IMG/VR virus record: IMGVR_UViG_3300013126_002685
Location: 1 to 30,101 of that record
DNA: 30,101 bases
DNA from: a virus
Lineage: Duplodnaviria; Caudoviricetes
Strand: one strand, 5' to 3'
Below the pieces are notes generated by a model. That model made no database searches, was not told the DNA's origin, and worked only from the letters and a program-made list of their open reading frames with translations. Positions 5,149-27,760 of this stretch are shown one piece after another. Within the stretch, counting starts at the first letter, position 1. Every line of letters starts with the position of its first letter. Position numbers and translations under genes: made by a program.

Positions 5149-5820
5149 ATGAAAACATTAGGAAGTTATATTACAAAATTTGAGAATAATCTCGTGGAAG
5201 GTTACAAAACAAATACCTTTAAAAAGTCATTGACTAAATTCAAGAATGAAGTTCTTAAAAATAACGACCTAAAAGAGGCGACAAATATTTATTATGAACT
5301 CTCATCAAAAAAAGGGTATGATAAAGAATTTGCCGAAATGTTTTTGGTTGAATCAATTAATAGATTGAAAGAAATTTATAAGAGTGAGAGAATTCAAGAT
5401 TATTTGACCGAAGGTGAAAATAACTACACCCAAATAGATGAACTAATATTTTCAAAAAATCTTGAAAAGAAAGTAAAAAATAGAATTTCTATTATTGAAA
5501 ACCTACAACAAAAACAAGAAATTACTGAAACAATTTACTTACCACTATCAATTCAAGTAGATATTGCAAATTCCAAAATAAAACCTTTGTTGGAAAATTT
5601 GTCTGAAGAAGAACTTTCTTTATTAAAAGAAATGAAAGAAATATCAGATAAAGATTTGGTGAATTTGGTTATAGAAACTAAAGAAGAAATTATGAATGTT
5701 TTTGAGAAAAACTCAATCCAAGAAAACAAACTGGATGAACTCAAAAATAAATTAGGATCATATGACAATTCCCACCGTTCGTTATTCGAACTCAGAAGAT
5801 TTTTGAATGAGTTGGTTTAA
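5149..5820 (+). CDS. Hypothetical helical protein downstream of portal
   Basis: 223-aa ORF tightly packed after the portal and preceded by TATTTAT; no recognisable motif. Confidence 0.7.
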   Translation: MKTLGSYITKFENNLVEGYKTNTFKKSLTKFKNEVLKNNDLKEATNIYYELSSKKGYDKEFAEMFLVESINRLKEIYKSERIQDYLTEGENNYTQIDELIFSKNLEKKVKNRISIIENLQQKQEITETIYLPLSIQVDIANSKIKPLLENLSEEELSLLKEMKEISDKDLVNLVIETKEEIMNVFEKNSIQENKLDELKNKLGSYDNSHRSLFELRRFLNELV

Positions 5821-6002
5821 TTGTTATTAAACTTCTGATTCACATAGATTGCTTTGTTCATTTTCTCTCTGTTGATTTCGGAATCTTTTTTATATTCCTT
5901 GTTTTCCCAAAGATTTTTATGAATTTGAGTCTTATAAATTTTATATTTATAAGTCTTCAAAGCCGCCTCTATGTTTTTTTTGTTTACAGGAACTATGATC
6001 AT
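5817..6002 (-). CDS. rpsU: Phage-encoded 30S ribosomal protein bS21 homolog
   Basis: 61 aa, basic; IIVPV...NIEAALKTYKYK..KT....L...KEYKK(D)S...R....KAIY aligns with Bacteroidia bS21 (IIPIK..ENIDRALKRYKRK..KT....L....FxKPS...R....KAxY); antisense location between portal and prohead protease matches described bS21-encoding phages. Confidence 0.85.
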   Translation of the reverse strand: MIIVPVNKKNIEAALKTYKYKIYKTQIHKNLWENKEYKKDSEINREKMNKAIYVNQKFNNN

Positions 6003-11911: not shown

Positions 11912-12811
11912 ATGTCGCAGTTAAAAGAAGATTTAGCAGTTTGGTTTGGAAAGAAGAAAAAAGGAAAAGGATCAAAACAACCACAAGGTCCGTGGGTTAA
12001 TATATGTAGAAAAAAAGAAGGGGGAGGGCATCCTCCTTGTGGAAGAGAAGAGGGTGGCCAGAGAGGTTATCCTGTGTGTAGAGCAAGATCTGTAGCATCG
12101 AAGATGAGTGAGGAGGAAAAGAAATCGGCCTGTGCAAGAAAAAGAAATAAAGAAAAGAAAGACCCTCAAACAGGTAAAGGTCAAAAACCAACAAGAATAC
12201 AAATTAAAGGATATAAAAAAGAATCAGTTATGGAAAAACCAATTTTTCAATGGACAACACTTAACGAAAACAAAACCATCCTCAGTGAAGGTATGACATA
12301 TCATATTGAAAATCACATTCCTTTACATGAGAATGTTTTCAGGATGGGGTCTGAAAGTTATTTTTCATTATTTAGAGAAGCTAGAAGTTTGGGTTACGAA
12401 AACTTCACGAATTCTATCGATAGATGGTTAATCAAAAACACTGATATTGGAATTTTCGAATTATATGAAGACGAATTGGTTCCTTTGGATATTCCGATGT
12501 TATATGAGGCCGAATATCAGGGTAAAAAAGTTCAATTAAACAAACCCATGAGAGGTGGAAGTGGAGGTAAAAAATTTAAGGTTTATGTTAAGGATCCCAA
12601 AACAGGAAATGTTAAAAAGGTTTCATTTGGTGCTGCAGGTGGTGGTGGATCTTTGGCTGTTAAACTCAAAGATCCCGCAGCTAAAAGATCTTTTGCGGCT
12701 AGACACAAATGTCACACAACAAAAGACAAAACAACTGCGTCCTATTGGGCTTGTAGATTACCGAGATATGCAAAGTCTTTGGGTTTAAGTGGGGGTGGAA
12801 CATGGTGGTAA
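11912..12811 (+). CDS. Basic, Cys-rich three-module putative capsid-internal protein
   Basis: Module 1 WVNIC...PCGR...YPVC...AC; module 3 KKFKVYVK...KVSFG...RSFAARHKC...YWAC (common small phage domains); modules bounded by LKE/LNE/LSE/LYE; TATTTAT upstream. Confidence 0.65.
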   Translation: MSQLKEDLAVWFGKKKKGKGSKQPQGPWVNICRKKEGGGHPPCGREEGGQRGYPVCRARSVASKMSEEEKKSACARKRNKEKKDPQTGKGQKPTRIQIKGYKKESVMEKPIFQWTTLNENKTILSEGMTYHIENHIPLHENVFRMGSESYFSLFREARSLGYENFTNSIDRWLIKNTDIGIFELYEDELVPLDIPMLYEAEYQGKKVQLNKPMRGGSGGKKFKVYVKDPKTGNVKKVSFGAAGGGGSLAVKLKDPAAKRSFAARHKCHTTKDKTTASYWACRLPRYAKSLGLSGGGTWW

Positions 12812-13071
12812 ACCCTTATTCTGAAGAAGTTCGAGATGATGTAATCCTTCGTGTATTCAAAGAAGAAGTGGAGAATGAAGAACTTGTTTGGCATCGTGAT
12901 CGTAGAGACAGAAAAGTAGAGATTATAGAATCCAATAAGTGGTATTTTCAATTCGAAGATCAGTTACCTATAGAGATGAAAAAAGGGGATGTATTGAACA
13001 TCCCCAAAGAAAGTTATCACCGAATTATCAAAGGTAATAATGATTTAATTGTTAAAATTTTTGAGTATTGA
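12802..13071 (+). CDS. Small cupin-fold protein
   Basis: EELVWHRD...W.FQF...P..MKKGDVLNIPKESYHRIIKG matches cupin motif 1/motif 2 spacing. Confidence 0.7.
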   Translation: MVVNPYSEEVRDDVILRVFKEEVENEELVWHRDRRDRKVEIIESNKWYFQFEDQLPIEMKKGDVLNIPKESYHRIIKGNNDLIVKIFEY

Positions 13072-13219
13072 ACTTTTTTTGTCTTATTGAATAATTTTTT
13101 GTTGAAAAAAAGTCTTTGTGGTATAAATTAAAGTAATCCACTGCTGAATCTGCACTTTGTGCTTCTGTTTCGTTGATAACTTTTCCGTCTTTCAGTAATT
13201 CGTAGGTTTTGAAATTCAT
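13052..13219 (-). CDS. Unannotated 55-aa protein MNFKTYELLKDGKVINETEAQSADSAVDYFNLYHKDFFSTKNYSIRQKKFNTQKF
   Basis: Hand-translated ATG 13219 to TAA 13052; fills the gap downstream of the TBDT; TATTTAT motif upstream at 13237-13243 (- strand). Confidence 0.65.
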   Translation of the reverse strand: MNFKTYELLKDGKVINETEAQSADSAVDYFNLYHKDFFSTKNYSIRQKKFNTQKF

Positions 13220-13266
13220 TGGTCAAAATCTTTCCAATAAATACTCCATATCGTGTAAAAATTACA

Positions 13267-16050
13267 TCAATTGAAGTTGTATTTGAAACTAAAATTCATT
13301 GTTGATCCGAATCTTGTTTCTTGCCAATTGTTATCAACTTCATCTAATTTTTCATTACCGTTGAGGTCTTGGAACATCACCAAATCCTGCGATAATAAAT
13401 CTCTAATATTCATTTTAAATTCCAAGTTGTCAAACTTTTTGGAAACTTGTAAATCAATTAAATTTCTTCCATTTTCCCAAACTGAAGGTTCTTGCACATT
13501 CCCAACCACAAATATTCTTGGACCCACCACATTGTATGTTGTGGATAGATTCCAACCGTTTGGTGTATTGTAAAATAGTCCAACATTATATACATATGGT
13601 GATTGACCTTGTAATGGTCTCCCATCCTCCGATCCTGCAAAACCATTCAGATTGACCTTGGAATCAATCAATGAAATATTGGAACTTAAATCCAAATTTT
13701 CTATCAAATTTACTTTCCCCTCTATTTCAACCCCTCTGATATATGCTGATTCAACATTCGAATAGTAAATTTCGGGAGCTCCTGAAACACCGGTTCTATT
13801 AATGGCCTCTATGGGATTTGTTAAATTCTTATTAAAAAATGAAACAGAGATGATTTCACTCAAGTCGGGATAATATTCAAACCTAATTTCTTGGTTGTTA
13901 ATCCTCGTTCTTTCAAGATAAGGATTCCCCGTGATTATATTATCTTGTATGAAATTATAAAAGGTGAATGGTGCAAGTTCTCTGAATTCAGGTCTTGAGA
14001 CACTTGTATATACCGAAGATCTTACTTGTGTTTTTTCATTTATAGAATAAACCAAGTTCAATGAGGGTAAAACATCCGTTACATTACTATTGATGTGGAT
14101 TGGTTTGTTCGAACCAAATTCTGTGTAATAAAAATTCTGATTGTAATTTTCCAATCTCAAACCACTTATCAATCTCAAAGACCTCCATTTTGAATCTAAT
14201 GAAATATAACCTGAATTCAGGTTGGAGTTCGCGTTATAACTATCATCCACATTTGTTGATTCATCAAGTTTAAAACCACCCATCCCATTGGATAAATCAC
14301 CCATATTCTCTTGTGAGAATATTTGACTTGGATCAAGTAGTAGAAGAGAACTATCAAACACCCCACCTTGAGGTCTGTATTGTGAATACCCTAAATTCCG
14401 TGACACAAAATTTCTTTCTCTGTATTGATGATATGAACCGAACTTAACTTCGTTCTCCAGTTTCAATAAAGAAAAACTACGAGACCAATCAAATTTCCCT
14501 GAATAAAGATTTTCGTCAGAATATGACCAAAACATATTTCCCGCAGCGGTGGGTATGGTTCCATTGGTTTGAATTACAGCTGCGTATTGTGAATTTGGAT
14601 CTTCTTCAGTAAGGGAATATTTTCTATACACAATTCTTCTCAAGTTTGGAATGTCTCTTTTCACATTGTTATAACCCAAAGTCCAAACAAGTTTCGATTT
14701 ATCAAAAGTATGATTTCCAATTAATTGTTGTGATAAAAAATTATTTTGTGTATACCAAAAATTGGTTGATCTTTCCCATTGCCTTGGGTCATTATCCATT
14801 TCACGAACTCCGATTCTGACATTCACTCTGTCTTCAGAATTTATTGTATAAAAGTTTTTTAATTTGATTGTATGATTCGGATTTAACAACAATGAAAAAT
14901 TCAAAAGACCACTGTTTGCAATTGTTTGAACAAATACTGAATCGTTCAACTCCATCTTTTGAACAACTCCGAGTTCTTGTTCTTCAAAATCTCGTCTTGT
15001 GGTTGTGGTTGTATTGTATTGGTTTGAGTAGTTATATGCCCCAGCCACAAGTAATGTTCTATTCCCGATTGAATAATTTCTACCAATCGTATATTGAATT
15101 GTTGAAGAAGGGGGTGCGACCCTATAATGTGTTGACCAATCTGTTTGAATGAGTGTTGCAAGGGTTGCTCTTTCTTGTCTTGACAAATTCACAAATTCCG
15201 ATGTATTCGGAATATTATCAGGTAAACACCTGAATTCAGAACCCAAACCCAAAATATCCATCGGACTTCCTTGATATGTTCCGAATCTCTGAAATGATGT
15301 CATTCCATTGACGGAGGTTCCAATCTGTAAAGTTTGATATGTAATTTCTTTTGGTTCAGTCGTGTTGATGTTGATCAAACCACCGGTAAATTCCCCCGAA
15401 AGATCTGCAGATGCTGATTTATTGATATATAAATTATCAATCATATTGGATGGAAAAAGATCAAAAGAAAATGCTCTTCTATCCGATTCGGTGGATGGAA
15501 GTGGAGATCCGTTAATTAATGCAAAGTTATACCTATCATTTAGACCTCTGACAATCACGAATTTGTTTTCTTGAATCGTCACCCCACCTACGCGTTTAAA
15601 TACATCAGAAGCTCTTGAATCAGGTGTTTTACTGAATGTTTCTGACGAAACTCCATCAATAACCGATGCTGATTTCCTTTGAAGGGAAACCATTTGTGTT
15701 GCCGATTGTTGATTTGCTTGAGCAACAACCGTTGCTTCACCTATTTCCATAAGGGTGGATTTCAAAGAAATATTCAAAACCCCATCCCGATTAACCAAAC
15801 TTATATTTTGAATTTGATTATCATATCCGATAAAACTCACCCGAACATCATAATTTCCCGATGGAATTCCTTTGATCACAAAATTACCATCCAAATCACT
15901 CATGGTTCCCTTACCGAGTTGTTCCACATATATCGTTGCACCAATCAACGACTCCCTTGTTTGAGAGTCGTTGACCGTGCCAGATAAATTATATTGGGAA
16001 AAACAACCTAATGAAAAGAATAAAAATATAAGTAGGTTAAAATATCTCAT
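13267..16050 (-). CDS. TonB-dependent outer-membrane receptor (signal peptide, carboxypeptidase-regulatory-like N domain, plug, beta-barrel)
   Basis: Signal peptide; GTVNDSQTRESLIGATI...GTMSDLDGNF...SFIGY N domain; plug VIVRGLNDRYN...FTGGLININT; barrel SRPEFRELAPF, GNPYL, RPLQGQSPY; C-terminal FSFKYNF(N). Confidence 0.93.
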   Translation of the reverse strand: MRYFNLLIFLFFSLGCFSQYNLSGTVNDSQTRESLIGATIYVEQLGKGTMSDLDGNFVIKGIPSGNYDVRVSFIGYDNQIQNISLVNRDGVLNISLKSTLMEIGEATVVAQANQQSATQMVSLQRKSASVIDGVSSETFSKTPDSRASDVFKRVGGVTIQENKFVIVRGLNDRYNFALINGSPLPSTESDRRAFSFDLFPSNMIDNLYINKSASADLSGEFTGGLININTTEPKEITYQTLQIGTSVNGMTSFQRFGTYQGSPMDILGLGSEFRCLPDNIPNTSEFVNLSRQERATLATLIQTDWSTHYRVAPPSSTIQYTIGRNYSIGNRTLLVAGAYNYSNQYNTTTTTRRDFEEQELGVVQKMELNDSVFVQTIANSGLLNFSLLLNPNHTIKLKNFYTINSEDRVNVRIGVREMDNDPRQWERSTNFWYTQNNFLSQQLIGNHTFDKSKLVWTLGYNNVKRDIPNLRRIVYRKYSLTEEDPNSQYAAVIQTNGTIPTAAGNMFWSYSDENLYSGKFDWSRSFSLLKLENEVKFGSYHQYRERNFVSRNLGYSQYRPQGGVFDSSLLLLDPSQIFSQENMGDLSNGMGGFKLDESTNVDDSYNANSNLNSGYISLDSKWRSLRLISGLRLENYNQNFYYTEFGSNKPIHINSNVTDVLPSLNLVYSINEKTQVRSSVYTSVSRPEFRELAPFTFYNFIQDNIITGNPYLERTRINNQEIRFEYYPDLSEIISVSFFNKNLTNPIEAINRTGVSGAPEIYYSNVESAYIRGVEIEGKVNLIENLDLSSNISLIDSKVNLNGFAGSEDGRPLQGQSPYVYNVGLFYNTPNGWNLSTTYNVVGPRIFVVGNVQEPSVWENGRNLIDLQVSKKFDNLEFKMNIRDLLSQDLVMFQDLNGNEKLDEVDNNWQETRFGSTMNFSFKYNFN

Positions 16051-16051
16051 T

Positions 16052-17644
16052 TCACTTATTGATTACAACCTTCTGGACATCATTTGATGTTTGAACGAAA
16101 TAAATCCCGTTTGAGAAGTTTGTGGTGTTAATTGTTACAGGTGCAAAATCTTCATAAACTCTTTGACCAACTTGGTTTGTGATAACAATTGGAGTTCTTT
16201 TTGGAGAAGTGACAATCAAGAAATCTGAAGTAGGATTTGGATAAACATTGAACGTAACTTCATTTTGATCTTCGACACCAATGACAATTGGATTTGCAAG
16301 AAGTGGGTGGGTAAAGTCAGCTCCGAGGGCGAGTGAACTATTTTCACTCAATCTAGCATCAGGTGTAATCCCAAGATCAACAAACAAATCAACCCAATCA
16401 ATTTGATCAATGGTTGTAAGTGAATCATTGTAATTTACACCAAAAAAGGAATTATAGAAATCTTCAGTCCCTGAAACACAATTTGATCCAACGGGAAGAT
16501 CTGATAAAATATTGTGAGCAAAAACCAAATTACCTGTTTGAAGATTTACTTGAGTTGAAATACCCTCAATTGACACCCCCTTTTCCCATCCCGAGACAAG
16601 TGAATTGAAAATAGATGTTGAGGTATTTCTTCTCAATCTGAAAGCCTTTTCAAAAGTTTCTCCAACAGGAAGGTCTTCTGTGTTATTATCACCTTTTGGA
16701 CCAACCAATGTCACATTTGAAAATACAGGAGCGGTTTTGGGAGTATTTTCAGACCCTTGACCATCATTGTCTGACTCAAAAGCGTTTGAATCTCCAACCG
16801 CGTCATACATAAATTTGTTTCTGATGGACAAAAGAAATTGATTTTTACCTCTGTAACCAAAGTCAGTATCAAAGTCATCATCAATACCACTGTAAGCGAT
16901 GAGGTGTTTTCCATTTACAGTCCCACCAAACCACTCAAAGGAGTCATCTCCCGAATATGAAACTTGAACAAAATCAACTAAAGTCCCCGACCCAACTGAT
17001 CCAAAGGTAAGACCGTTAATCTCTTTGTTCGGTTCAAGAGCAATACCACAGAATTCAATTCTTATATACTTTATAACACCCGAATTGTCAGAATCATCCG
17101 TTCCACCATATTCTGTGTCTAAAGAGGCGGGAATTCCTTCAATATTTGCAACACCACTTGGTTGATTATTGATTGCGTTTCCCAAAATTACCAAACCACC
17201 CCAATCACCTTCTGCTCTTTCACCTACAGGTTGGTTCGAAGTAAAAACAATCGGACTGGATTGAGTTCCTTCTGCATAAATTTTGGAACCTTTAGTGATA
17301 ATCAAAGTTGCCTGAGTTGATGCATCACCACGAATAATTGTTCCGGGTTGAATTGTCAAAGTAGCACCATTTTTTACATAAATTTTGTTTTGAATCTCAA
17401 CAACACCCCCGATGGTTGTATTTGTTGTAATATCTGAATTTAGAACCATAGATGGGGTTGGATATTCGGTATTTTGTGGATCCCAATTCGACCAACCGTA
17501 AGTCCAATCTGTTGCGGAAGTATTATCCGTAACAGGAAAAGCTCCTTTGTAATTTACATAATCCCAAGTCCATTCTTGGGCGTTTGCGGCAAAAAGACCC
17601 ATAAATACCGCGAGGGTCATCAAAATTTGTTTTCTCATAATCAT
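16052..17644 (-). CDS. Secreted acidic beta-helix protein with T9SS type-A C-terminal sorting domain
   Basis: SPI signal (...AANA/QEW); LTIQPGT..., PIVFTS, GDWGGLVILG, DNSG..KYIRIEF, DDSFEWFGGTVN, DDDFDTDFGY; CTD VYPNPTSD...NQVGQ...GIYFV...KVVINK. Start could be 17638. Confidence 0.88.
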   Translation of the reverse strand: MIMRKQILMTLAVFMGLFAANAQEWTWDYVNYKGAFPVTDNTSATDWTYGWSNWDPQNTEYPTPSMVLNSDITTNTTIGGVVEIQNKIYVKNGATLTIQPGTIIRGDASTQATLIITKGSKIYAEGTQSSPIVFTSNQPVGERAEGDWGGLVILGNAINNQPSGVANIEGIPASLDTEYGGTDDSDNSGVIKYIRIEFCGIALEPNKEINGLTFGSVGSGTLVDFVQVSYSGDDSFEWFGGTVNGKHLIAYSGIDDDFDTDFGYRGKNQFLLSIRNKFMYDAVGDSNAFESDNDGQGSENTPKTAPVFSNVTLVGPKGDNNTEDLPVGETFEKAFRLRRNTSTSIFNSLVSGWEKGVSIEGISTQVNLQTGNLVFAHNILSDLPVGSNCVSGTEDFYNSFFGVNYNDSLTTIDQIDWVDLFVDLGITPDARLSENSSLALGADFTHPLLANPIVIGVEDQNEVTFNVYPNPTSDFLIVTSPKRTPIVITNQVGQRVYEDFAPVTINTTNFSNGIYFVQTSNDVQKVVINK

Positions 17645-17702
17645 CTTTTTTTTATTTTATTGTAAATTATACGAATATAATTACAACAAGACAAAGCAAG
17701 GT

Positions 17703-17720
17703 TGTTAAGAGAATGTTAAG
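17703..17720 (-). promoter_or_regulatory. Pho-box-like direct repeat CTTAACA-N4-CTTAACA (11-bp period)
   Basis: TGTTAAG at 17703-17709 and 17714-17720 on +; about 60 bp upstream of the T9SS/TBDT operon and just upstream of a TTG-17-TATATTCG Bacteroidota-like promoter. Confidence 0.6.
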
Positions 17721-17737
17721 TAGTAAATAATATTTTA

Positions 17738-17992
17738 TTATTTTTTCCCCCTACAATAAGAACCAGAACATCTTTTTTTACCATCAAGACCTGCAATTTT
17801 ACCTTTACAGACTTGAACCGCATATCCATTTGCGTAAGCACTTGGATAAACATCATATTTGGACTTCGCCGCAGATATTCCACGAGCACATAATTTGTTT
17901 GATTTTTTCTTTTTTTCAGTGAGATATGCCTCCAAAAGAAATCTTCTCATAATTTCTTTGAGATCGTCACTTGTTAAATTGATTCTATTCAT
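17738..17992 (-). CDS. Small basic Cys-containing phage protein with head-targeting-like leader
   Basis: Leader INLTSDDLKEIMRRFLLE..LTE followed by KLCARG..AAKSKYDVYPSAYANGYAVQVCKG (common phage PSAYA family). Confidence 0.7.
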   Translation of the reverse strand: MNRINLTSDDLKEIMRRFLLEAYLTEKKKKSNKLCARGISAAKSKYDVYPSAYANGYAVQVCKGKIAGLDGKKRCSGSYCRGKK

Positions 17993-19464
17993 TTTTTATT
18001 TACAACTTGAAAGTTTATTTCGTTTTTATATGTGACAATATTATTATTTTGGTTTAGTTGTAAATCGATAAAGTATTCGTTTGGAATTTTATCTCTCATA
18101 TCCAATAGGAAGAAATATTCTTCAGGAGTTCTGTTGAGTTCTGTCCAATCTGTTACTTGAACCTCGGTTTGACCCTCCTTTACATAGATCCTGTATTGAA
18201 TATCTATATCGTCAACAATATGTGATTTTGTATAAGCTCTTTTAGGTATTACTGAAATTTTTCTTTGATCTGTGTTCAATATTTTTTCTGAATATTTAAC
18301 ACCGTAGAAAGTAAATCCATACTCTTGGGTGTTTGGTAAAGAAGTATCATATTGAAGACTATCTGTAAATGATTTTAGTTCAAATTCATTTTCAATATCA
18401 TTAAGATTATTTCCATTATAAACTAATCCTGTCCATTTATCAGAATAAAGACAATTTAAAGAACCTCCTGTGAATGCGGGAACTGTTACTGTATAAATTC
18501 CTTTTGTAACTCGACATGAGGACAGACCTGTTAAACCAGAAAGAGCGTCACCATTTGGATCTAAAATATTTACGGTCGGATTTGAATCCAAGTTAATTGG
18601 AGAACCATTTTTGGAAATATACAAATAAAGATCATTTGATGTTCCTTCGGTAAAGTTGGTTCGACTGTCATTTATAATGTCATCCCATTTTGAATATAAG
18701 AATGGTTCATAAAAAGTCTGAGTGTGTCTTGTGAAGAATCCAACCGAATATGACTCACTCAACCCTGTTAGGTTTTCGACTTGTGGGACAAATGCGATTC
18801 CCCACCCTACACTATCAGTTGTCCCACCTGTTAATATATTGTTTATCTCATTTGTCATATCAAATGAAATATCCTCATCACCAAATTCGAAATGTTGTGT
18901 ATCAACTATGGTAAGTGCTGAATAATTGACCAATCCACCTGTTCCTGAATTATCGTTAATATAAATTCCATCAGTACTCCAATCATTTATTAATTCTCTT
19001 TGGAAGTAATTTGATGGTCTCAAAGAATACGCTTTATCGGTTAGATCGAAGTCGTCAGTTGTGTTTTGAACATAGTCATAACCAACCCCCTCATCCCAAC
19101 TTTGTGTAGTTCCTGTAGCACCTGCGGATTTGGGTATTCTGAATAGAATAAGGTCGAATGATGTTGCCCGTCTTCTTCCATCACTTGTTGTTTCATTTAA
19201 CAAATCAGAAAACGCAGAACTATTGGTCATTCTCAATTCATGAGTGATGTTGGTATTACAACCAAAATTCAAATATCCATCGGTTATTTTTTCTTCTAAA
19301 CCCGTTAAATCTAAATCAAAGATAAATCTTGAGAAGTTTTTTGTTCCGATTGCGGGAAAGTTTGAACCAAAAAATAATTCAGTAACAGGATTTCTTCCCG
19401 TATTTACTTCTGAATTGAATAAAATGGTATTATTTCTTTTAAAATACGAACGATAATCAGACAT
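17989..19464 (-). CDS. Putative virion structural protein (beta-rich, SRFIFDLD / SWDEGVGYDY / FFTRHTQTFYEP)
   Basis: 491-aa ORF; TATTTATA upstream; adjacent to baseplate gene; function inferred from context. Confidence 0.6.
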   Translation of the reverse strand: MSDYRSYFKRNNTILFNSEVNTGRNPVTELFFGSNFPAIGTKNFSRFIFDLDLTGLEEKITDGYLNFGCNTNITHELRMTNSSAFSDLLNETTSDGRRRATSFDLILFRIPKSAGATGTTQSWDEGVGYDYVQNTTDDFDLTDKAYSLRPSNYFQRELINDWSTDGIYINDNSGTGGLVNYSALTIVDTQHFEFGDEDISFDMTNEINNILTGGTTDSVGWGIAFVPQVENLTGLSESYSVGFFTRHTQTFYEPFLYSKWDDIINDSRTNFTEGTSNDLYLYISKNGSPINLDSNPTVNILDPNGDALSGLTGLSSCRVTKGIYTVTVPAFTGGSLNCLYSDKWTGLVYNGNNLNDIENEFELKSFTDSLQYDTSLPNTQEYGFTFYGVKYSEKILNTDQRKISVIPKRAYTKSHIVDDIDIQYRIYVKEGQTEVQVTDWTELNRTPEEYFFLLDMRDKIPNEYFIDLQLNQNNNIVTYKNEINFQVVNKK

Positions 19465-19474
19465 ATTGATATTT

Positions 19475-19486
19475 TATTTATAAATA
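19475..19486 (-). promoter_or_regulatory. Candidate late promoter within palindrome TATTTATAAATA (gene 19464)
   Basis: Perfect 12-bp palindrome in a 22-bp intergenic gap. Confidence 0.6.
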
Positions 19487-21013
19487 TCAATTTATCTTGA
19501 AGTTCTGACTTAAAACTTTTTGATATGCGTCCATCATTTTTTTCATCAGTTCTGTTGTCGTGGATCCATTTGTTGTGGTTGGAGTTGGTGGTAATCCATG
19601 AAAGGCATGAACATGAGTTATTAAGTATTGTATGATATAATTCAATAATTCCAATAACTCTTCACCCCTCACCATAGATGAAACATTTCCATCAACATTT
19701 TCTGAAATAAAATCCCCCGAAACACCATAATTTGTTCCCTCCAAATTAATTTGTTTTTTTCCTGGTATTACGGAATTATGTGATAAAAAGTAAAATTTAT
19801 CAGCTCCGAAAATCTGCACAGTTGAATTGTCCGATGTTGTTTTTACATCCTCCAAATTTATTAATTTTGGTTGAACAGGAGTCCCCTTTTTATTTTTGGA
19901 GAATATAAGACCAAAACCACCAAAAGTTTTAGATTCGGTCGTACTCAAAGACAAACCAACCTGACTTTGAAATGACAGAGCATTGACCAAAGAAAGAGGA
20001 TCTGAAGTTTGTGTGGAAACATTTAATACATTTTGTGTCGGTCTATAGTAGAAAGGAAAAACATTACCAAGAGAAGGTGATATAGTTAAGGTAGAATCTT
20101 TGAAATTAGTCAATAATGTATTGATAAAATCAACAGCACCTGACATCGAAAGACCTTGGAAATTTTCAGTATATGCTAAACTTTTGTTTTGTATTTCGGT
20201 GTCCGGTAACACACTCTTAATTTTAATATTCTCACCTTCATTTATCCTGTAAAAATAAACACTACCTGTAAAATTTGATGAACTATTCAAATTCAAAATA
20301 TCCCACTCAACAAGATAAACAAGATTTGCATCTGTTTGTTCTAATTTAATAAGTTTTTTTAAAGTTTTTTCCGAAGATGTTGTTTCAAGATTAGATAATT
20401 GAATGAAAGACCTTCTTGGGTTTTCATAAGGGAAGGTAGATCCATTTGCATTTCTTAATCCGATTGATTTTGATTTACCAGAACGAAGAATGATGTCTTC
20501 ATCTTTTAGAACAATATCTGTGTTGTATCTTCCAAGGATTGCAATATCTTCGGGGTTTGGAAATATGGATTGAGTCTTCGGGTTTTTATAACTTCCGTCG
20601 GGGTTTTTGAGGTCGGGAGACATTTTATTTCTATCCCCCGTATTCAATAAAGTTTCCGCATTCGCTGAAACATCTTTGTATTGTAATGTGGGCGAAGAAA
20701 TCGGACCTTGCATATAAAACTTATTCTTATCATCCTGAAATTCTGGATTGGAATAGACTATATGAACATACTCCCCAACTTTTGGGATTTGCCTGAAGAA
20801 ATAAGGCATCAAAGAATTAAAAACGAAGGGGTCTTTTTTTGTCCAAAAATATTTTGAAGGAATGTCACCAGGAATATCATAAACCTCGTTTGGGAAATTT
20901 GCTTTTACAATGTCATTCACATACCTCGTTGTTGGGAATGCTCTTATCCTCCCCAACACAAGGGGATCATCCACCGAAACACATACACCAGGATAAATTA
21001 TTTTTTTCGACAT
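19487..21013 (-). CDS. Baseplate hub / central spike protein (gp5-like OB fold)
   Basis: N-terminal VSVDDPLVLGRIRA...PKVGEYV OB-fold signature; LGRYNTDIVL; C-terminal VRGEEL...THVH (spike HxH motif). Confidence 0.78.
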   Translation of the reverse strand: MSKKIIYPGVCVSVDDPLVLGRIRAFPTTRYVNDIVKANFPNEVYDIPGDIPSKYFWTKKDPFVFNSLMPYFFRQIPKVGEYVHIVYSNPEFQDDKNKFYMQGPISSPTLQYKDVSANAETLLNTGDRNKMSPDLKNPDGSYKNPKTQSIFPNPEDIAILGRYNTDIVLKDEDIILRSGKSKSIGLRNANGSTFPYENPRRSFIQLSNLETTSSEKTLKKLIKLEQTDANLVYLVEWDILNLNSSSNFTGSVYFYRINEGENIKIKSVLPDTEIQNKSLAYTENFQGLSMSGAVDFINTLLTNFKDSTLTISPSLGNVFPFYYRPTQNVLNVSTQTSDPLSLVNALSFQSQVGLSLSTTESKTFGGFGLIFSKNKKGTPVQPKLINLEDVKTTSDNSTVQIFGADKFYFLSHNSVIPGKKQINLEGTNYGVSGDFISENVDGNVSSMVRGEELLELLNYIIQYLITHVHAFHGLPPTPTTTNGSTTTELMKKMMDAYQKVLSQNFKIN

Positions 21014-21015
21014 AA

Positions 21016-21228
21016 TCAGACGTTGGTTCTTTGTTTATATTTATTTAACAATTCATTATAAACTGTTTCTGTAATCACCATATGTTCGGAAATTTTTTCA
21101 ATAAATTTCATAGATTCATCATAATCTTTTCTCAATATATCCAATACCTCCGTAACTTTTTTGTTCGGAGAATTGTCAAAATCCGAAATTACGGATTTTA
21201 TTAATTTTTGTTCTTGTTCTGTTATCAT
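21016..21228 (-). CDS. Small helical hypothetical protein
   Basis: 70-aa ORF translationally coupled (ATGA overlap) within the operon. Confidence 0.7.
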   Translation of the reverse strand: MITEQEQKLIKSVISDFDNSPNKKVTEVLDILRKDYDESMKFIEKISEHMVITETVYNELLNKYKQRTNV

Positions 21229-23165
21229 ATCAGTTTTCCGAATAAAGATGCTGGTGATAGGTATGGTCCCGCAATCGGAACTAAAGGTTGTGAAGGTAAT
21301 CCTAAATTAATTGTTGAGATTTGAACTTTTGAATTCTCATCCATCTCTCTCTTATATGAGCTTATTAATGAAAAGTCATGGATCAAACCTAAATTGGGGG
21401 AACCATCGGGTAAATCACCTGTTGGAAACCCGAGTTTATCCAATGTTTCTGTATGATTGTTAAATGCTCGGACCGCTGAAAACCCTTCTAATAGAGAAGA
21501 GAAAGCGAGTGCCGGTAACGGAATCCTCAATTTTGGAGCTAATAACCTTAATAATGTTAATAATTCATCAGTTATACTTCTACATCGTTTATAGTCACGA
21601 ATAAGATTGACAACAACAAAAGCAATAGACAAAAGTTTCGTTATTATAATAATATAAGTATTTTTACTTTTTTCACTAATGTCTTTGTTGAGATTAACTA
21701 TCAAATTGTAAATTTGTTTTTTTATCAAAACGACTAACACTTCCTTAAATTTAGCTTGAATTTCCGAAATTAAAACAACCATTATATTTCTCATTTCTTT
21801 GAGAAAACTTCTAAAATCTTCTACAGCATCAACAAAATTTTGTTTAAGGGCTTTGAACATTATGAATATTGGTAACAAAACTTTGGGACTAATCAAAGAC
21901 ATAGTTATGATCTTCGGTAACTGTTTGATAATTTCTAAATTCAGAACAAGATTAAAATCAATCGTTGGTAAGTTAGGACCCCACTCTGGATTCTGTGAAA
22001 TATCCTTGATACTCTCTAAAAACTGTTCTTGTAATTCCTCATCAGTTTTATCAGAAGCATTTTCCCATATGTTTAATATGTTATTAACAACTTGGTTATA
22101 ATCTACGGGCAATTTTAAGTTTCCACAATCCTCAAACTCAACAACACGGTTTATGGTATTGTTGATATCATTATCTACATCCCTTAATTCGAATTCTGTG
22201 AGTTCAAAAAAAGAATCATTAATTTCTTCCAATATGGAAACTTTTGAAGTACCACCAACCTCTATTTCTTGTGTATTGTCAAAACATAAACCAAGTATTC
22301 TTTGAATTATCTTCAGAGCCACTGACACATCCTCCAATTTTTTTGACCCAACCTCCAAGTCCATATCTACGGACGAGGTAATTATATTCATTGCGTTTTT
22401 TACGATGTCTGAAAAATCAAATATTTTTATCGATTGGTAATAATCAACTAAAAAATCAGCAACTAAAGTTGGCGAATTTAATTTTGGTTGTAAAGTAATT
22501 TCATAGAAATCACCGAAATTTCCCGTGTTTTGATCTTGAACAACATATTTTATATCAAAAAGATCTTGGTTCGAAAAACCTTTGTAGAATTGTCCATATT
22601 GTTCCGAATAAGACTGATTACTTTGAGTTCTGTTATATAACTCCCTATTCATAGAAAAAGGGTTGTTCTGAATAGATAAACTTTCTTTTTCATACAGAAT
22701 CTTTGTTTTATTATCATCAGGAGAGTATTTCAGATAATCTAATAAATCAATCGAATCAATTTTAATGTATATTTTTTCGTTGGGTATGTATTGTTGTTCT
22801 TGTTCACAACCCAAGGCTTTTATAGTAGAATCAGTAAGAAGTGTTGGAAGTTGATTTTTAACTTCCCTTGCAGCATCAAACATTGCCTTAAGAAGAATAT
22901 CGACAGTTTCATTACCACTCTCGGGATTCCTTACTAAATCGATTAATTTATCATATTGGTTTTTGACGGCAGACGAATTATAGGCTTCAGATGCTTTTCC
23001 TTTGGCCGATTTCAGAGATTCAGAGAAAAACTTGTCACTTACAGTTTCAGCGTCTCCAGCTTTTTTTTCAATATCCTTTATTTGTTTGGATATTTTTTTG
23101 TACTTTTGACCACTTTTGATCTTACTCTTTATCTCACTAAATTCGTCGTTTAAATCAAGTGCCAT
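21225..23165 (-). CDS. Large hypothetical protein (646 aa), probably baseplate/tail associated
   Basis: Long ORF in operon with the gp5-like gene; C-terminal hydrophobic helices and G.PTGDLPDGSPN motif. Confidence 0.65.
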   Translation of the reverse strand: MALDLNDEFSEIKSKIKSGQKYKKISKQIKDIEKKAGDAETVSDKFFSESLKSAKGKASEAYNSSAVKNQYDKLIDLVRNPESGNETVDILLKAMFDAAREVKNQLPTLLTDSTIKALGCEQEQQYIPNEKIYIKIDSIDLLDYLKYSPDDNKTKILYEKESLSIQNNPFSMNRELYNRTQSNQSYSEQYGQFYKGFSNQDLFDIKYVVQDQNTGNFGDFYEITLQPKLNSPTLVADFLVDYYQSIKIFDFSDIVKNAMNIITSSVDMDLEVGSKKLEDVSVALKIIQRILGLCFDNTQEIEVGGTSKVSILEEINDSFFELTEFELRDVDNDINNTINRVVEFEDCGNLKLPVDYNQVVNNILNIWENASDKTDEELQEQFLESIKDISQNPEWGPNLPTIDFNLVLNLEIIKQLPKIITMSLISPKVLLPIFIMFKALKQNFVDAVEDFRSFLKEMRNIMVVLISEIQAKFKEVLVVLIKKQIYNLIVNLNKDISEKSKNTYIIIITKLLSIAFVVVNLIRDYKRCRSITDELLTLLRLLAPKLRIPLPALAFSSLLEGFSAVRAFNNHTETLDKLGFPTGDLPDGSPNLGLIHDFSLISSYKREMDENSKVQISTINLGLPSQPLVPIAGPYLSPASLFGKLI

Positions 23166-23536
23166 TATTTGAGATGGTATTTACCATCGTCAAGTTTGTC
23201 TATGTCTTTCCCAATCAAATTTTGAAGAACATCATCATCAATTTCACTCAAACTAAAGTTTTCTTCACTATTATTGTTAGATTTTTCCCAAATTTGAGAT
23301 TGAAGTTTTGACAAACTTAATTTTTTCTCGATGGTGTCATTTATTATTTTTTGTTGTTCTTTGATAATAGGTCCGAGAACTGTAAGATCCTCCGCGTCTT
23401 TCATCAAAGAAGCCATTTTGTTCTGTAATCTTATGGCTGTATTTCTTTGCTCAACCAATTCGTTGTAAATTTCTTGCATCAATCCCAAGATGGAATCCTT
23501 GGATAGTTTGATTTCTTTTCTACGAGGTTTTGTCAT
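23165..23536 (-). CDS. Coiled-coil hypothetical protein
   Basis: 123-aa ORF; TAATG overlap with the next gene. Confidence 0.7.
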   Translation of the reverse strand: MTKPRRKEIKLSKDSILGLMQEIYNELVEQRNTAIRLQNKMASLMKDAEDLTVLGPIIKEQQKIINDTIEKKLSLSKLQSQIWEKSNNNSEENFSLSEIDDDVLQNLIGKDIDKLDDGKYHLK

Positions 23537-23544
23537 ATATATAA

Positions 23545-24288
23545 TTATTCAGAATTCAATTTATTTAGGAATTCAAAATAAAGACCCCTGTATTTTTTAA
23601 TTGAACTTCTTACTTCTTTGGTTGACATATTTGTCATTTCACGGATGGATAACAAAATAACATTTTTGTTGAATTTGTTGTTGTCGTTTCCCAAAAAAAC
23701 TCGTTCATAGTTCTTTAATAGTTCCACTAACGCATAACCCAACTTTATTTCGTTTGTGTTTAAATCTGATTTTTCGATAAAGTCCTCTAATTTTTCCACA
23801 TACATCTCAATAATTTCCGTAGTCTCGACATTTTCGTATTCTAAATAATATATTAAGTCAGGACGATTTTCCAAATTGGATGAAATATCTTCATACGAGA
23901 TTCTACGGTTCTGATCTTTTTGGTCTTTTATAATTTGACCCATAAGGTAATTCTTACATATGGTTCCAAAATAAGAATACGCTTTTTTGTTTTTTTCGGG
24001 TTTAAATTTATCAACTTTTGTTAATAAAAAAGAATGGGTATCACTGTGAATATCAGCAAAATCCATGTCTTTTCTATATAACTTATATCTTCTTATGATT
24101 GAGGAAATCATCTTATCCAAAGGTGCGTGGAGAAATTCATCATAAATACGATTCTTTTCACCCCACGATTTCGCTTCAAGGAACATGCGCACGGCATGTT
24201 CCTCTCTTTCTGCGAAATAATTCTTTTCTTTTGGCTTTCGCCCTTTTTTTACCTTTTCTGTGTTAGTTGTCGCTGAGGCTGGGTTCAT
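23545..24288 (-). CDS. Late-transcription sigma factor (T4 gp55-like)
   Basis: KNYF N-terminal motif and sigma region 2-like KVDKFKPEKNKKAYSYFGTICKNYL (cf. FDPEK..KF/AF.TY/AYF). Confidence 0.7.
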   Translation of the reverse strand: MNPASATTNTEKVKKGRKPKEKNYFAEREEHAVRMFLEAKSWGEKNRIYDEFLHAPLDKMISSIIRRYKLYRKDMDFADIHSDTHSFLLTKVDKFKPEKNKKAYSYFGTICKNYLMGQIIKDQKDQNRRISYEDISSNLENRPDLIYYLEYENVETTEIIEMYVEKLEDFIEKSDLNTNEIKLGYALVELLKNYERVFLGNDNNKFNKNVILLSIREMTNMSTKEVRSSIKKYRGLYFEFLNKLNSE

Positions 24289-26440: not shown

Positions 26441-27047
26441 TCAATATATTATTTTTATAATAATTTATAAACTCTTCCAAAGAGTAAATCTTTTTATCGT
26501 GTTCATAAGAGGAGTTCTGTTCATTTGAGAATAAAATTATGTGTTTCATCCATTTTTTATACTCAGTTATTAGAGCAGTGTTACAAGTTACCAACACATC
26601 AATGTCTTTGAAAATTTTATCAATTGTTTTGTTATTATAGAAAATAACCTCCTCAATTTCACATCCAAACTTGGATAGGAAAAAAAGTGTCGATGGTTTT
26701 GATTTACCAAACTCATCAGAAACAATTACGATTTCATTTTCATCCCTTAATTCCTTATAGATTTTATCCAAACTCACAAAGGTATTCATCTCAGTGGAGG
26801 GGGCATGACCAAAAATTGTCATGGGATTTTCCACATAAATGAAATCATAAAGTTCTTCGTCGGATTTGAACTTGAAGTGGTTTTTAATTATCTCGGTATT
26901 AATTGGTCTAACAACCTCATATTTGAAGTCATCCTCAACTTCTTCTACTCCGACCTCCAACTCCTCGACCATCAATTTTTCGTAAGTGAATTCCAATTTT
27001 TTAATGGTGTCCCGAAGAACACCATTCACTTCAAAAGCAATTCTCAT
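26433..27047 (-). CDS. HAD-superfamily 5'(3')-nucleotidase-like protein with degenerate motif I
   Basis: MRIAFEVNGVLRD in place of DxDGV; IVIVS motif II; TLFFLSKFG. Confidence 0.65.
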   Translation of the reverse strand: MRIAFEVNGVLRDTIKKLEFTYEKLMVEELEVGVEEVEDDFKYEVVRPINTEIIKNHFKFKSDEELYDFIYVENPMTIFGHAPSTEMNTFVSLDKIYKELRDENEIVIVSDEFGKSKPSTLFFLSKFGCEIEEVIFYNNKTIDKIFKDIDVLVTCNTALITEYKKWMKHIILFSNEQNSSYEHDKKIYSLEEFINYYKNNILNV

Positions 27048-27760
27048 TGTTCGTATTTATCCAATATTTTATTGATAAGAGGGTTACGAATAATATCTTT
27101 ATTGTCAAAACTAAAAACACCAATATCCTCCACATCTTTGAACTTCATAAGTGCATCATAAAGACCTGAATGTGTTTTATCCTTATATCGGTCAGTTTGT
27201 TCCAAATCACCCGAAATAAAGAACTTACTGTTAAATCCAATTCTTGTTAAAAGAAGTTTCATTTGTTTTGGGGTGGCATTCTGACCTTCCTCAAAAATTA
27301 ATATGGAATTATCAATATTCATACCTCTCATGTAAGCCAAAGCAAATACCTCAATGATCTCAACCTCCTTCAATTTTTCTCTAGCTTCTTTTCCGATAAT
27401 TTTATTCATAAGGTAATAACTCGGAAAAATATAAGGATCTAACTTTTCTTCCACATTACCAGGAAGAGAACCAAGTTTTTCTTCTGCTTCAACGGCGGGT
27501 CTTACAATAATAATTTTTTCATAACCATTTTCGGGATCACATAAAAGATCTATCGCAGCTCTCATAGCAACAAATGACTTACCAACACCTGCAGGACCTG
27601 AACAAATCGTAATTTGATTCTTACAAAGAATATCATAATATTCCTTTTGAGAATCGGTCAAAAACTTTTTTCGGGGTCTTTTAGTTACAATTGAATTTAT
27701 GAGATCCTTTTTATTAACATAAACTTCTCTTGGTTTAACTTCTTCTTTTTTTCTTTGCAT
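27044..27760 (-). CDS. phoH: PhoH-like ATPase
   Basis: SQKEY, GPAGVGKS, RPAVEAEEKLGSLPG...EK..PY, AYMRG, EEGQN, LLTRIG, GDLEQTD, IIRNPLI. Confidence 0.95.
   Translation of the reverse strand: MQRKKEEVKPREVYVNKKDLINSIVTKRPRKKFLTDSQKEYYDILCKNQITICSGPAGVGKSFVAMRAAIDLLCDPENGYEKIIIVRPAVEAEEKLGSLPGNVEEKLDPYIFPSYYLMNKIIGKEAREKLKEVEIIEVFALAYMRGMNIDNSILIFEEGQNATPKQMKLLLTRIGFNSKFFISGDLEQTDRYKDKTHSGLYDALMKFKDVEDIGVFSFDNKDIIRNPLINKILDKYEQ

Follow-up and report, generated by a model that had tools for sequence, protein, structure and literature searches.

A TonB-dependent transporter and a predicted type IX-secreted beta-helix protein encoded by a phage, probably captured from a host phosphate-starvation locus

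Why should a phage carry genes for the outer membrane of its host? This question is raised by a viral DNA stretch of 30,101 nucleotides (IMG/VR record IMGVR_UViG_3300013126_002685), called the window below, which is a 30.1-kb piece of a larger virus record (CheckV completeness 9%). Among its phage genes are two intact open reading frames (ORFs) on the minus strand, at 13267-16050 and 16052-17644, separated by 1 bp, just as a sequence-only reading of this DNA had placed them. The first encodes a TonB-dependent transporter (TBDT) of 927 aa (P0001) and the second a beta-helix protein of 530 aa (P0002). We consider it probable that this two-gene module was captured from a phosphate-starvation locus of a Crocinitomicaceae-like host, that it is switched by the host PhoB and that it scavenges organic phosphorus for phage DNA synthesis.

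P0001 (13267..16050, minus strand) is a complete transporter, as had been proposed from the letters alone, and is of the non-SusC type. It scores above cut-off for PF13715, PF07715, PF00593 and PF14905, and a signal peptide is followed by a CarbopepD-like N-terminal domain (aa 22-108), a plug (aa 125-222) and a 22-strand barrel (aa 238-925). The structure model (pLDDT 82.5) contains the N-terminal domain, the plug and 22 counted barrel strands, and matches solved TonB-dependent transporters, with a Foldseek E value of 4e-26 to PhuR. An assignment of the pair to SusC/SusD was rejected, with 63.5 bits against a cut-off of 368 for TIGR04056 and a partner that has no SusD Pfam domain. P0001 also lies below the curated cut-off of TIGR01782 (TonB-Xanth-Caul; 183.8 versus 310 bits), as do TBDTs of the type found in the PUSIV locus of F. 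johnsoniae. Since TonB_C was not found in the five phage carrier records searched, P0001 is assumed to be powered by the host TonB. Some other phage TBDTs, of 853-864 aa (loci L010-L025 and L055-L057), have lost the CarbopepD-like domain at the N-terminus and are still under purifying selection.

The partner, P0002 (16052..17644, minus strand), is an ElpS/FII/BT4056-like protein with an N-terminal signal peptide, read by eye in the sequence and seen as a hydrophobic helix at residues 3-20 of the model. A right-handed beta-helix spans approximately aa 62-415 (16400..17461), the range given by the structure model (pLDDT 83.6) and by VIA-align, and matches PF28492 (Beta_helix_4). A C-terminal sorting domain (CTD) of type A for the secretion system of type IX (T9SS) occupies aa 467-528 (16061..16246), above cut-off in PF18962 (32.9 versus 27 bits) and TIGR04183 (28 versus 23), with Foldseek matches to T9SS CTD structures. 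The beta-helix and the type-A domain described in the sequence-only reading thus stand, and P0002 is predicted to be a T9SS type-A cargo that would leave the cell via Sec and the host T9SS. It has no lipobox cysteine and carries the T9SS CTD instead, as in its Crocinitomicaceae relatives, while lipoprotein forms occur in other phages; the end motif of the lipoprotein forms sits N-terminally in P0002, which amounts to a circular permutation. An acidic ladder (D233, D234, E237, D255-D257, D259, E290 and D292) is kept in at least 0.9 of the 169 aligned rows and is equally conserved in phage and bacterial proteins. P0002 thereby combines the features of the PF28492 family, namely a pectin-lyase-like right-handed beta-helix, the acidic ladder and an adjoining TBDT; its probable membership in the ElpS/FII/BT4056 family is drawn from genes in the same positions and from homology, rather than from the named sequences themselves. 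Of 151 Bacteroidota genomes sampled, 105 have the beta-helix core.

Structure searches with Foldseek and VIA gave no standout beta-helix match, the fold being shared with tailspikes, NosD and pectate/alginate lyases (Z 16-22), and a search of PDB sequences returned domain fragments only. A virion tailspike or depolymerase was considered because of this similarity of fold and rejected, since P0002 has a signal peptide and a T9SS CTD and is 44-66% identical to bacterial chromosomal genes. Near the beta-helix gene of other loci we also found T9SS signals of the CHU_C type (type B), in L083:14956-19497 (1513 aa, with PKD repeats) and L074:11550-13133 (527 aa). T9SS cargo may be a wider class in phages.

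The cassette is real and under purifying selection. Seven other IMG/VR contigs with differing sample identifiers (L001, L003, L005, L006, L008, L009 and L021) span both junctions in the same gene order, and their cassette identity to the window (76-95%) is in step with that of the flanking genes, so that the chimera suspected as a possible flaw of the sequence-only reading did not appear. Nor is selection relaxed, another outcome that would have spoken against a function: pairwise dN/dS values of the two genes are 0.062/0.043 against L003, 0.089/0.086 against L005 and 0.111/0.088 against L008, at dS values of 0.7-1.8 that are comparable to those of neighbouring genes, and dN/dS in other phage lineages is 0.05-0.18. 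For GC content at third codon positions (GC3), the two genes have values of 0.27 and 0.29, and the phage range is 0.23-0.36. Contigs from three lake runs of one study, which may be DNA runs, cover the cassette, and one contig of 2,964 bp bridges both genes.

The insertion site can be recognised from empty-site relatives. Upstream lies a conserved phage gene of 84 aa (17738..17992, minus strand) and downstream a gene of 55 aa (13052..13219, minus strand), matched by eye to an ORF of about 57 aa at the same position in empty-site relatives such as L105, L146 and L153. In such relatives the 84-aa gene is directly followed by the small gene or by homologs of w12802/w11912. Out of 595 relatives scanned for a 491-aa flanking gene, we surveyed the best 80, and 77 of these span the site; the cassette is missing in 75 of the 77, and the two carriers belong to the clade of the window itself. 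No clear terminal repeat was found when each junction region was searched separately. The point where the head module converges with the module on the minus strand (window 13052-17992; L088-L165) is a variable site, at which relatives hold other ORFs, e.g., of 679, 918 or 590 + 1179 aa, and the basic, cysteine-containing genes that flank it (11912-12811 and 17738-17992) vary widely in length among relatives, from 124 to 618 aa and from 80 to 273 aa, respectively.

A link to phosphate comes from the bacterial homologs, which we compared in the 79 best genome loci, mostly from metagenome-assembled genomes of Crocinitomicaceae or Flavobacteriales. A TBDT match is present in 74 and a histidine kinase in 49 of them, and 61 contain a regulator that shares 55% identity or more with PUSIV-type PhoB; the best NCBIfam matches of the regulator and kinase neighbours are PhoB and PnpS/PhoR, below cut-off. 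The bacterial order is TBDT then beta-helix, the opposite of the window. In F. johnsoniae, Fjoh_0545 (TBDT) and Fjoh_0546 (FII lipoprotein) form PUSIV within the phoBR cluster and are induced under phosphate limitation and not under iron or nitrogen limitation (PMC8115612). Three loci (L286, L290 and L296) combine OprP-PhoR-PhoB with a divergent TBDT-beta-helix lipoprotein pair, two of them with a glycosyltransferase as well, and thus repeat this PUSIV layout (Fjoh_0541-0546). On plasmids, the pair lies in a phosphate island, phoB-phoR-pstS-beta-helix-TBDT-exbBD-tonB, in Alteromonas macleodii (L298, NZ_OX359244.1), in the elpS layout, beta-helix-TBDT-gsp, in Sphingomonas, and next to a nuclease gene in Hymenobacter. 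The sequence-only reading had likened the pair to such loci, induced by phosphate starvation; the PhoB/PhoR-like neighbours, the PUSIV and elpS-cc0171-gsp orders and a conserved Pho-box-like repeat support this link. The identity to the PUSIV-type pair is low.

That repeat, TTAACA-N5-TTAACA, is a direct repeat with an 11-bp period at 17703..17719 (minus strand), 75 bp upstream of the ATG of the beta-helix gene, and is a candidate box for the host PhoB, an OmpR-family regulator. It is the sole perfect copy in the window, where five matches with at most one mismatch occur against 0.88 expected, and it is retained in the clade (L001, L005, L008 and L009). To guard against circularity, only regions upstream of bacterial TBDT genes were used to learn the motif. 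The top de novo dyad, present in 34 of 41 such regions compared to 18 of 177 others, has the same repeat as its consensus, and on the bacteria-only matrix the window site reaches 18.0 bits, in the top percentile. Among dereplicated phage beta-helix upstream regions, 13 of 18 lie above the 95th percentile set by 302 other phage regions, in a scoring whose rows are related and from which genes with an upstream gap below 60 bp, and with them most of the lineage lacking the repeat, were dropped. The bacteria-only motif also occurs at the promoters of OprP (2/2) and PhoU-like genes (3/3). Five carrier records (990 kb) contain 31 sites with at most one mismatch; of the 30 examined, eight are intergenic. 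In every record one of these eight stands before the beta-helix gene, five in all, and another precedes a pair of MJ1255-type glycosyltransferase and PlcP-like genes. The PhoP of Riemerella, a member of the Flavobacteriales, recognises a TTTAACA core, and a TBDT promoter is among the places where it does so (PMC9603813). We regard the repeat as a candidate, and likely, binding site for the host phosphate regulator. In a distant T4-like lineage, a TTAACA-type repeat stands before a gene of about 715 aa or an AAA ATPase gene (L069:15014, L064:7911 and L080:10555), and not before the beta-helix gene.

The pair is neither confined to the window nor obligate. Among 63 viral beta-helix loci, many of them repeat samplings of one phage, a TBDT adjoins the gene in 21 and does not in 37, and five are cut short; hence, the receptor and surface partner described in the sequence-only reading do adjoin, in the window and elsewhere, but the beta-helix gene can also stand alone. 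Matches to the major capsid protein (MCP) in nine of 27 carrier records were close in six (78-90%) and distant in three (43-46%). A second phage lineage has a TBDT of 725-825 aa followed by a beta-helix lipoprotein of about 400 aa in 22 of 25 distant loci (L371-L395), the other three ending at contig edges, and several of these loci have a TTAACA-type repeat upstream; a lipoprotein-type pair is also present in a 635-kb GenBank phage. Trees were built with FastTree from 83 of 169 rows for the beta-helix protein and from 39 of 91 rows for the TBDT. In the former, the window belongs to a phage clade of 15 rows amid Crocinitomicaceae/Flavobacteriales rows, and the phage label needs six changes, at least four of which are forced by strong branches; in the latter, nine phage rows form one clade at the corresponding place, and the branching largely matches that of the beta-helix tree. 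Phages thus appear to have gained the beta-helix gene several times, and the simplest reading for the window-type pair would be a single capture, followed by spread from phage to phage and repeated loss of the TBDT.

In the mechanism that we propose, the host PhoB of a phosphate-starved infected cell would turn on the phage promoter through the retained repeat. As expected from what is known of these families, the host BAM would insert the barrel and the host TonB-ExbBD would energise it, while the beta-helix protein would be exported through Sec and the host T9SS. The acidic groove of the beta-helix, presumably lined with metal, may capture a phosphorylated polyanion, and the protein could serve either the phage or the host transporter as an open lid or a capture protein. 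Uptake would then be driven by the host TonB, host periplasmic phosphatases would free the phosphate, and this phosphate would feed a phage genome of approximately 300 kb, according to CheckV estimates.

Several observations weigh against this reading. We know of no substrate for any member of the importer-lid family. The beta-helix gene has no adjoining TBDT in 37 of the 63 viral loci, and two genomes that are 98-99% complete (G006 and G007) have it with no matching TBDT. The identity between the phage and PUSIV-type pairs is only 24-27% for the TBDT and 30-41% for the beta-helix protein, values taken from loci with the PUSIV layout. Across whole genomes, the repeat does not outnumber its reversed control, with 14 versus 14 sites in three bacterial genomes and 31 versus 35 in five phage records; of the 14 perfect bacterial sites, 10 lie in front of genes for which a link to phosphorus is not evident, and the repeat is missing at the corresponding position in one phage lineage (the L063-L080, L085 group). 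The Riemerella PhoP motif is ArcA-like and has 583 peaks (PMC9603813). As for function, deletion of elpS was reported to leave phosphatase activity unchanged (PMC2996285), and for BT4055/BT4056 a fitness phenotype was absent from all 519 experiments, and few contacts were predicted with confidence (bioRxiv 10.1101/2023.03.17.533168).

The rival explanation that survives best is receptor masking or superinfection exclusion, in which a phosphate-induced host transporter serves these or competing phages as a receptor and is covered or displaced, just when it is made, by the phage lid, either alone or together with a variant barrel. Such masking would account both for the retention of lone beta-helix genes and for the Pho-type timing, and the Llp/Cor lipoproteins, which block FhuA, are a precedent for it. 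Receptor interference has also been raised for phage outer-membrane proteins (OMPs) in general (bioRxiv 10.64898/2026.10.24.761521). We nevertheless regard receptor masking as unlikely: purifying selection maintains an entire transporter, plug and barrel included, the acidic ladder is conserved in phages as it is in bacteria, and other phosphate-economy genes (PlcP-like phosphoesterase and MJ1255-type glycosyltransferase) co-occur, once behind the same repeat.

Close behind is the idea that the beta-helix protein, once exported, is what chiefly acts, working with a host transporter or boosting an extracellular host phosphatase, the phage TBDT being optional. The lone genes, including those of the near-complete G006 and G007, fit it, and so do phages with a like context that either have or do not have the TBDT (L034/L035/L045 versus L055-L057) and the rise in phosphatase activity reported on ElpS overexpression (PMC2996285). 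However, where the TBDT is kept, it is equally selected (dN/dS 0.04-0.10), and the second lineage retains TBDT and lipoprotein in all loci not cut by contig ends; we give this explanation a slightly smaller chance still.

We think it quite improbable that the pair handles a non-phosphorus ligand, such as a glycan or a metal complex, or obeys another OmpR-family regulator, with the phosphate link being an inherited context. Another such regulator could read the repeat, given the ArcA-like motif and the 583 peaks of Riemerella PhoP; the motif is generic, most perfect bacterial sites lack a phosphorus link and the fold, shared so widely, gave no standout match. Against this stand the PhoB-like neighbours in 61 of 79 loci, the response of the PUSIV genes to phosphate and not to iron or nitrogen limitation (PMC8115612), and the PhoB required for elpS induction (PMC5172544). 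Finally, the bacterial type of both genes could have suggested an assembly chimera or neutral passenger DNA, which we dismiss almost entirely, the former being ruled out by the seven independent contigs across both junctions and recent passenger DNA by dN/dS values far below 1 at dS 0.7-1.8, with GC3 inside the phage range.

Returning to the captured phosphate-starvation module, other genes in these phages may belong to the same economy. A PlcP/LpxH-like phosphoesterase is present in L344:3856-5545 (genome G009), L034, L035, L055-L057, L080, L082 and L085, and in three of 12 phage records searched; in G009 it lies with the MJ1255-type glycosyltransferase downstream of the same TTAACA repeat. 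Pairs of this kind serve lipid remodelling in phosphate starvation, as reported in PMC4796936, and the PlcP-like genes are possibly a phage-borne version of it. A bolder proposal, which we put forward tentatively and hold rather less likely than its opposite, is that large Bacteroidota phages have built a Pho regulon of their own, comprising an importer driven by host PhoB, a T9SS-exported protein and, in some, lipid-remodelling genes. Under this proposal, phages would have taken up the importer-lid family on four or more occasions, in its T9SS as well as its lipoprotein form, and it would be the Bacteroidota counterpart of cyanophage pstS.

The rest of the window agrees with a phage of Bacteroidota. 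Profile searches confirmed the head module named in the sequence-only reading (TerL, portal, bS21 on the reverse strand, prohead protease and MCP) and, beyond it, found PhoH (27044-27760, minus strand), dUTPase and glycosyltransferases. bS21 (5817-6002, minus strand) matches PF01165 with an E value of 7.8e-6, just under cut-off, and has the same arrangement in relatives; its position on the reverse strand inside the TerL-portal-protease-MCP region is the layout of bS21 phages predicted for Bacteroidetes hosts (PMC9723584), a paper whose main text does not contain the words 'TonB' and 'secretion'. The label 'baseplate module' for the other side of the cassette did not find profile support: the ORFs in 17989-23536 gave no informative Pfam, PHROG or NCBIfam match, with one weak Pfam match below cut-off, and are conserved in related phages, while a 646-aa right-hand ORF resembles nameless viral clusters only. 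A sigma-70-like gene (23545-24288, minus strand) is among the most conserved genes of the window (dN/dS 0.004-0.025).

The bacterial pair, the PhoBR control of cyanophage genes and phage TonB receptors have all been described before, and in the open-access literature we found no paper on a beta-helix and TBDT pair in phages. If the proposed function is true, phages that scavenge phosphorus would not be limited to pstS and phoA, which act in the periplasm in the case of cyanophages: in Bacteroidota, the chief degraders of polymers in lakes, they would also employ energised import across the outer membrane and the T9SS of their host. The family is very widespread, and the fact that phages have captured it repeatedly and keep it under strong selection would then mark it as important under phosphate stress; the phage version, a compact two-gene unit with its promoter, would offer a handle for substrate discovery.

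How does the phage pair compare with known systems? Huge phages have been reported to encode 22-stranded OMPs, including a TonB-dependent receptor of Lak phage, some aquatic ones near phosphate-acquisition genes (bioRxiv 10.64898/2026.10.24.761521). The main text of that preprint mentions no T9SS, type IX or beta-helix partners, and its OMP section and discussion no Pho-type box; this pair, its predicted T9SS export and the upstream box go beyond that text, although the genes may be listed in its supplementary Table 7. Price et al. (bioRxiv 10.1101/2023.03.17.533168) placed Fjoh_0546 and ElpS in the same lid family as the partner in the TBDT-lid pair BT4055/BT4056, within the pectin-lyase superfamily and with 621 genera, and the phage pair is linked to BT4055/BT4056 through this grouping; BT4056 is a lipoprotein lid of a cell genome, unlike the phage T9SS form.

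Like the phage pair, PUSIV joins a non-SusC TBDT with PF13715, PF07715 and PF14905 to a pectin-lyase-like beta-helix partner (PMC8115612). Unlike it, the phage has a partner with a T9SS CTD in place of a lipid anchor and with a circularly permuted end motif, the order beta-helix then TBDT, a 1-bp gap and no phoBR of its own. In Caulobacter, ElpS (CC0170), whose induction is PhoB-dependent (PMC5172544), and CC0171/CCNA_00170 form a phosphate-starvation-induced pair that has the phage order of beta-helix then TBDT (PMC2996285, PMC5172544). In the Sphingomonas locus with the order beta-helix-TBDT-gsp, the gene at the elpS position shares 37% identity with the phage protein across 281 aa; ElpS is a lipoprotein released by the type II secretion system, whereas the phage protein is a predicted T9SS cargo. 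A viral parallel is cyanophage pstS, which is under host PhoBR control (PMC10976474). The phage pair differs from it in consisting of an outer-membrane importer and a predicted exported protein, in being found in Bacteroidota phages and in that the PstS-type family (PF12849) was not found in the five carrier records searched; what the two would share is that a lytic phage has a phosphate-starvation gene of its host, together with a control site of the Pho type.

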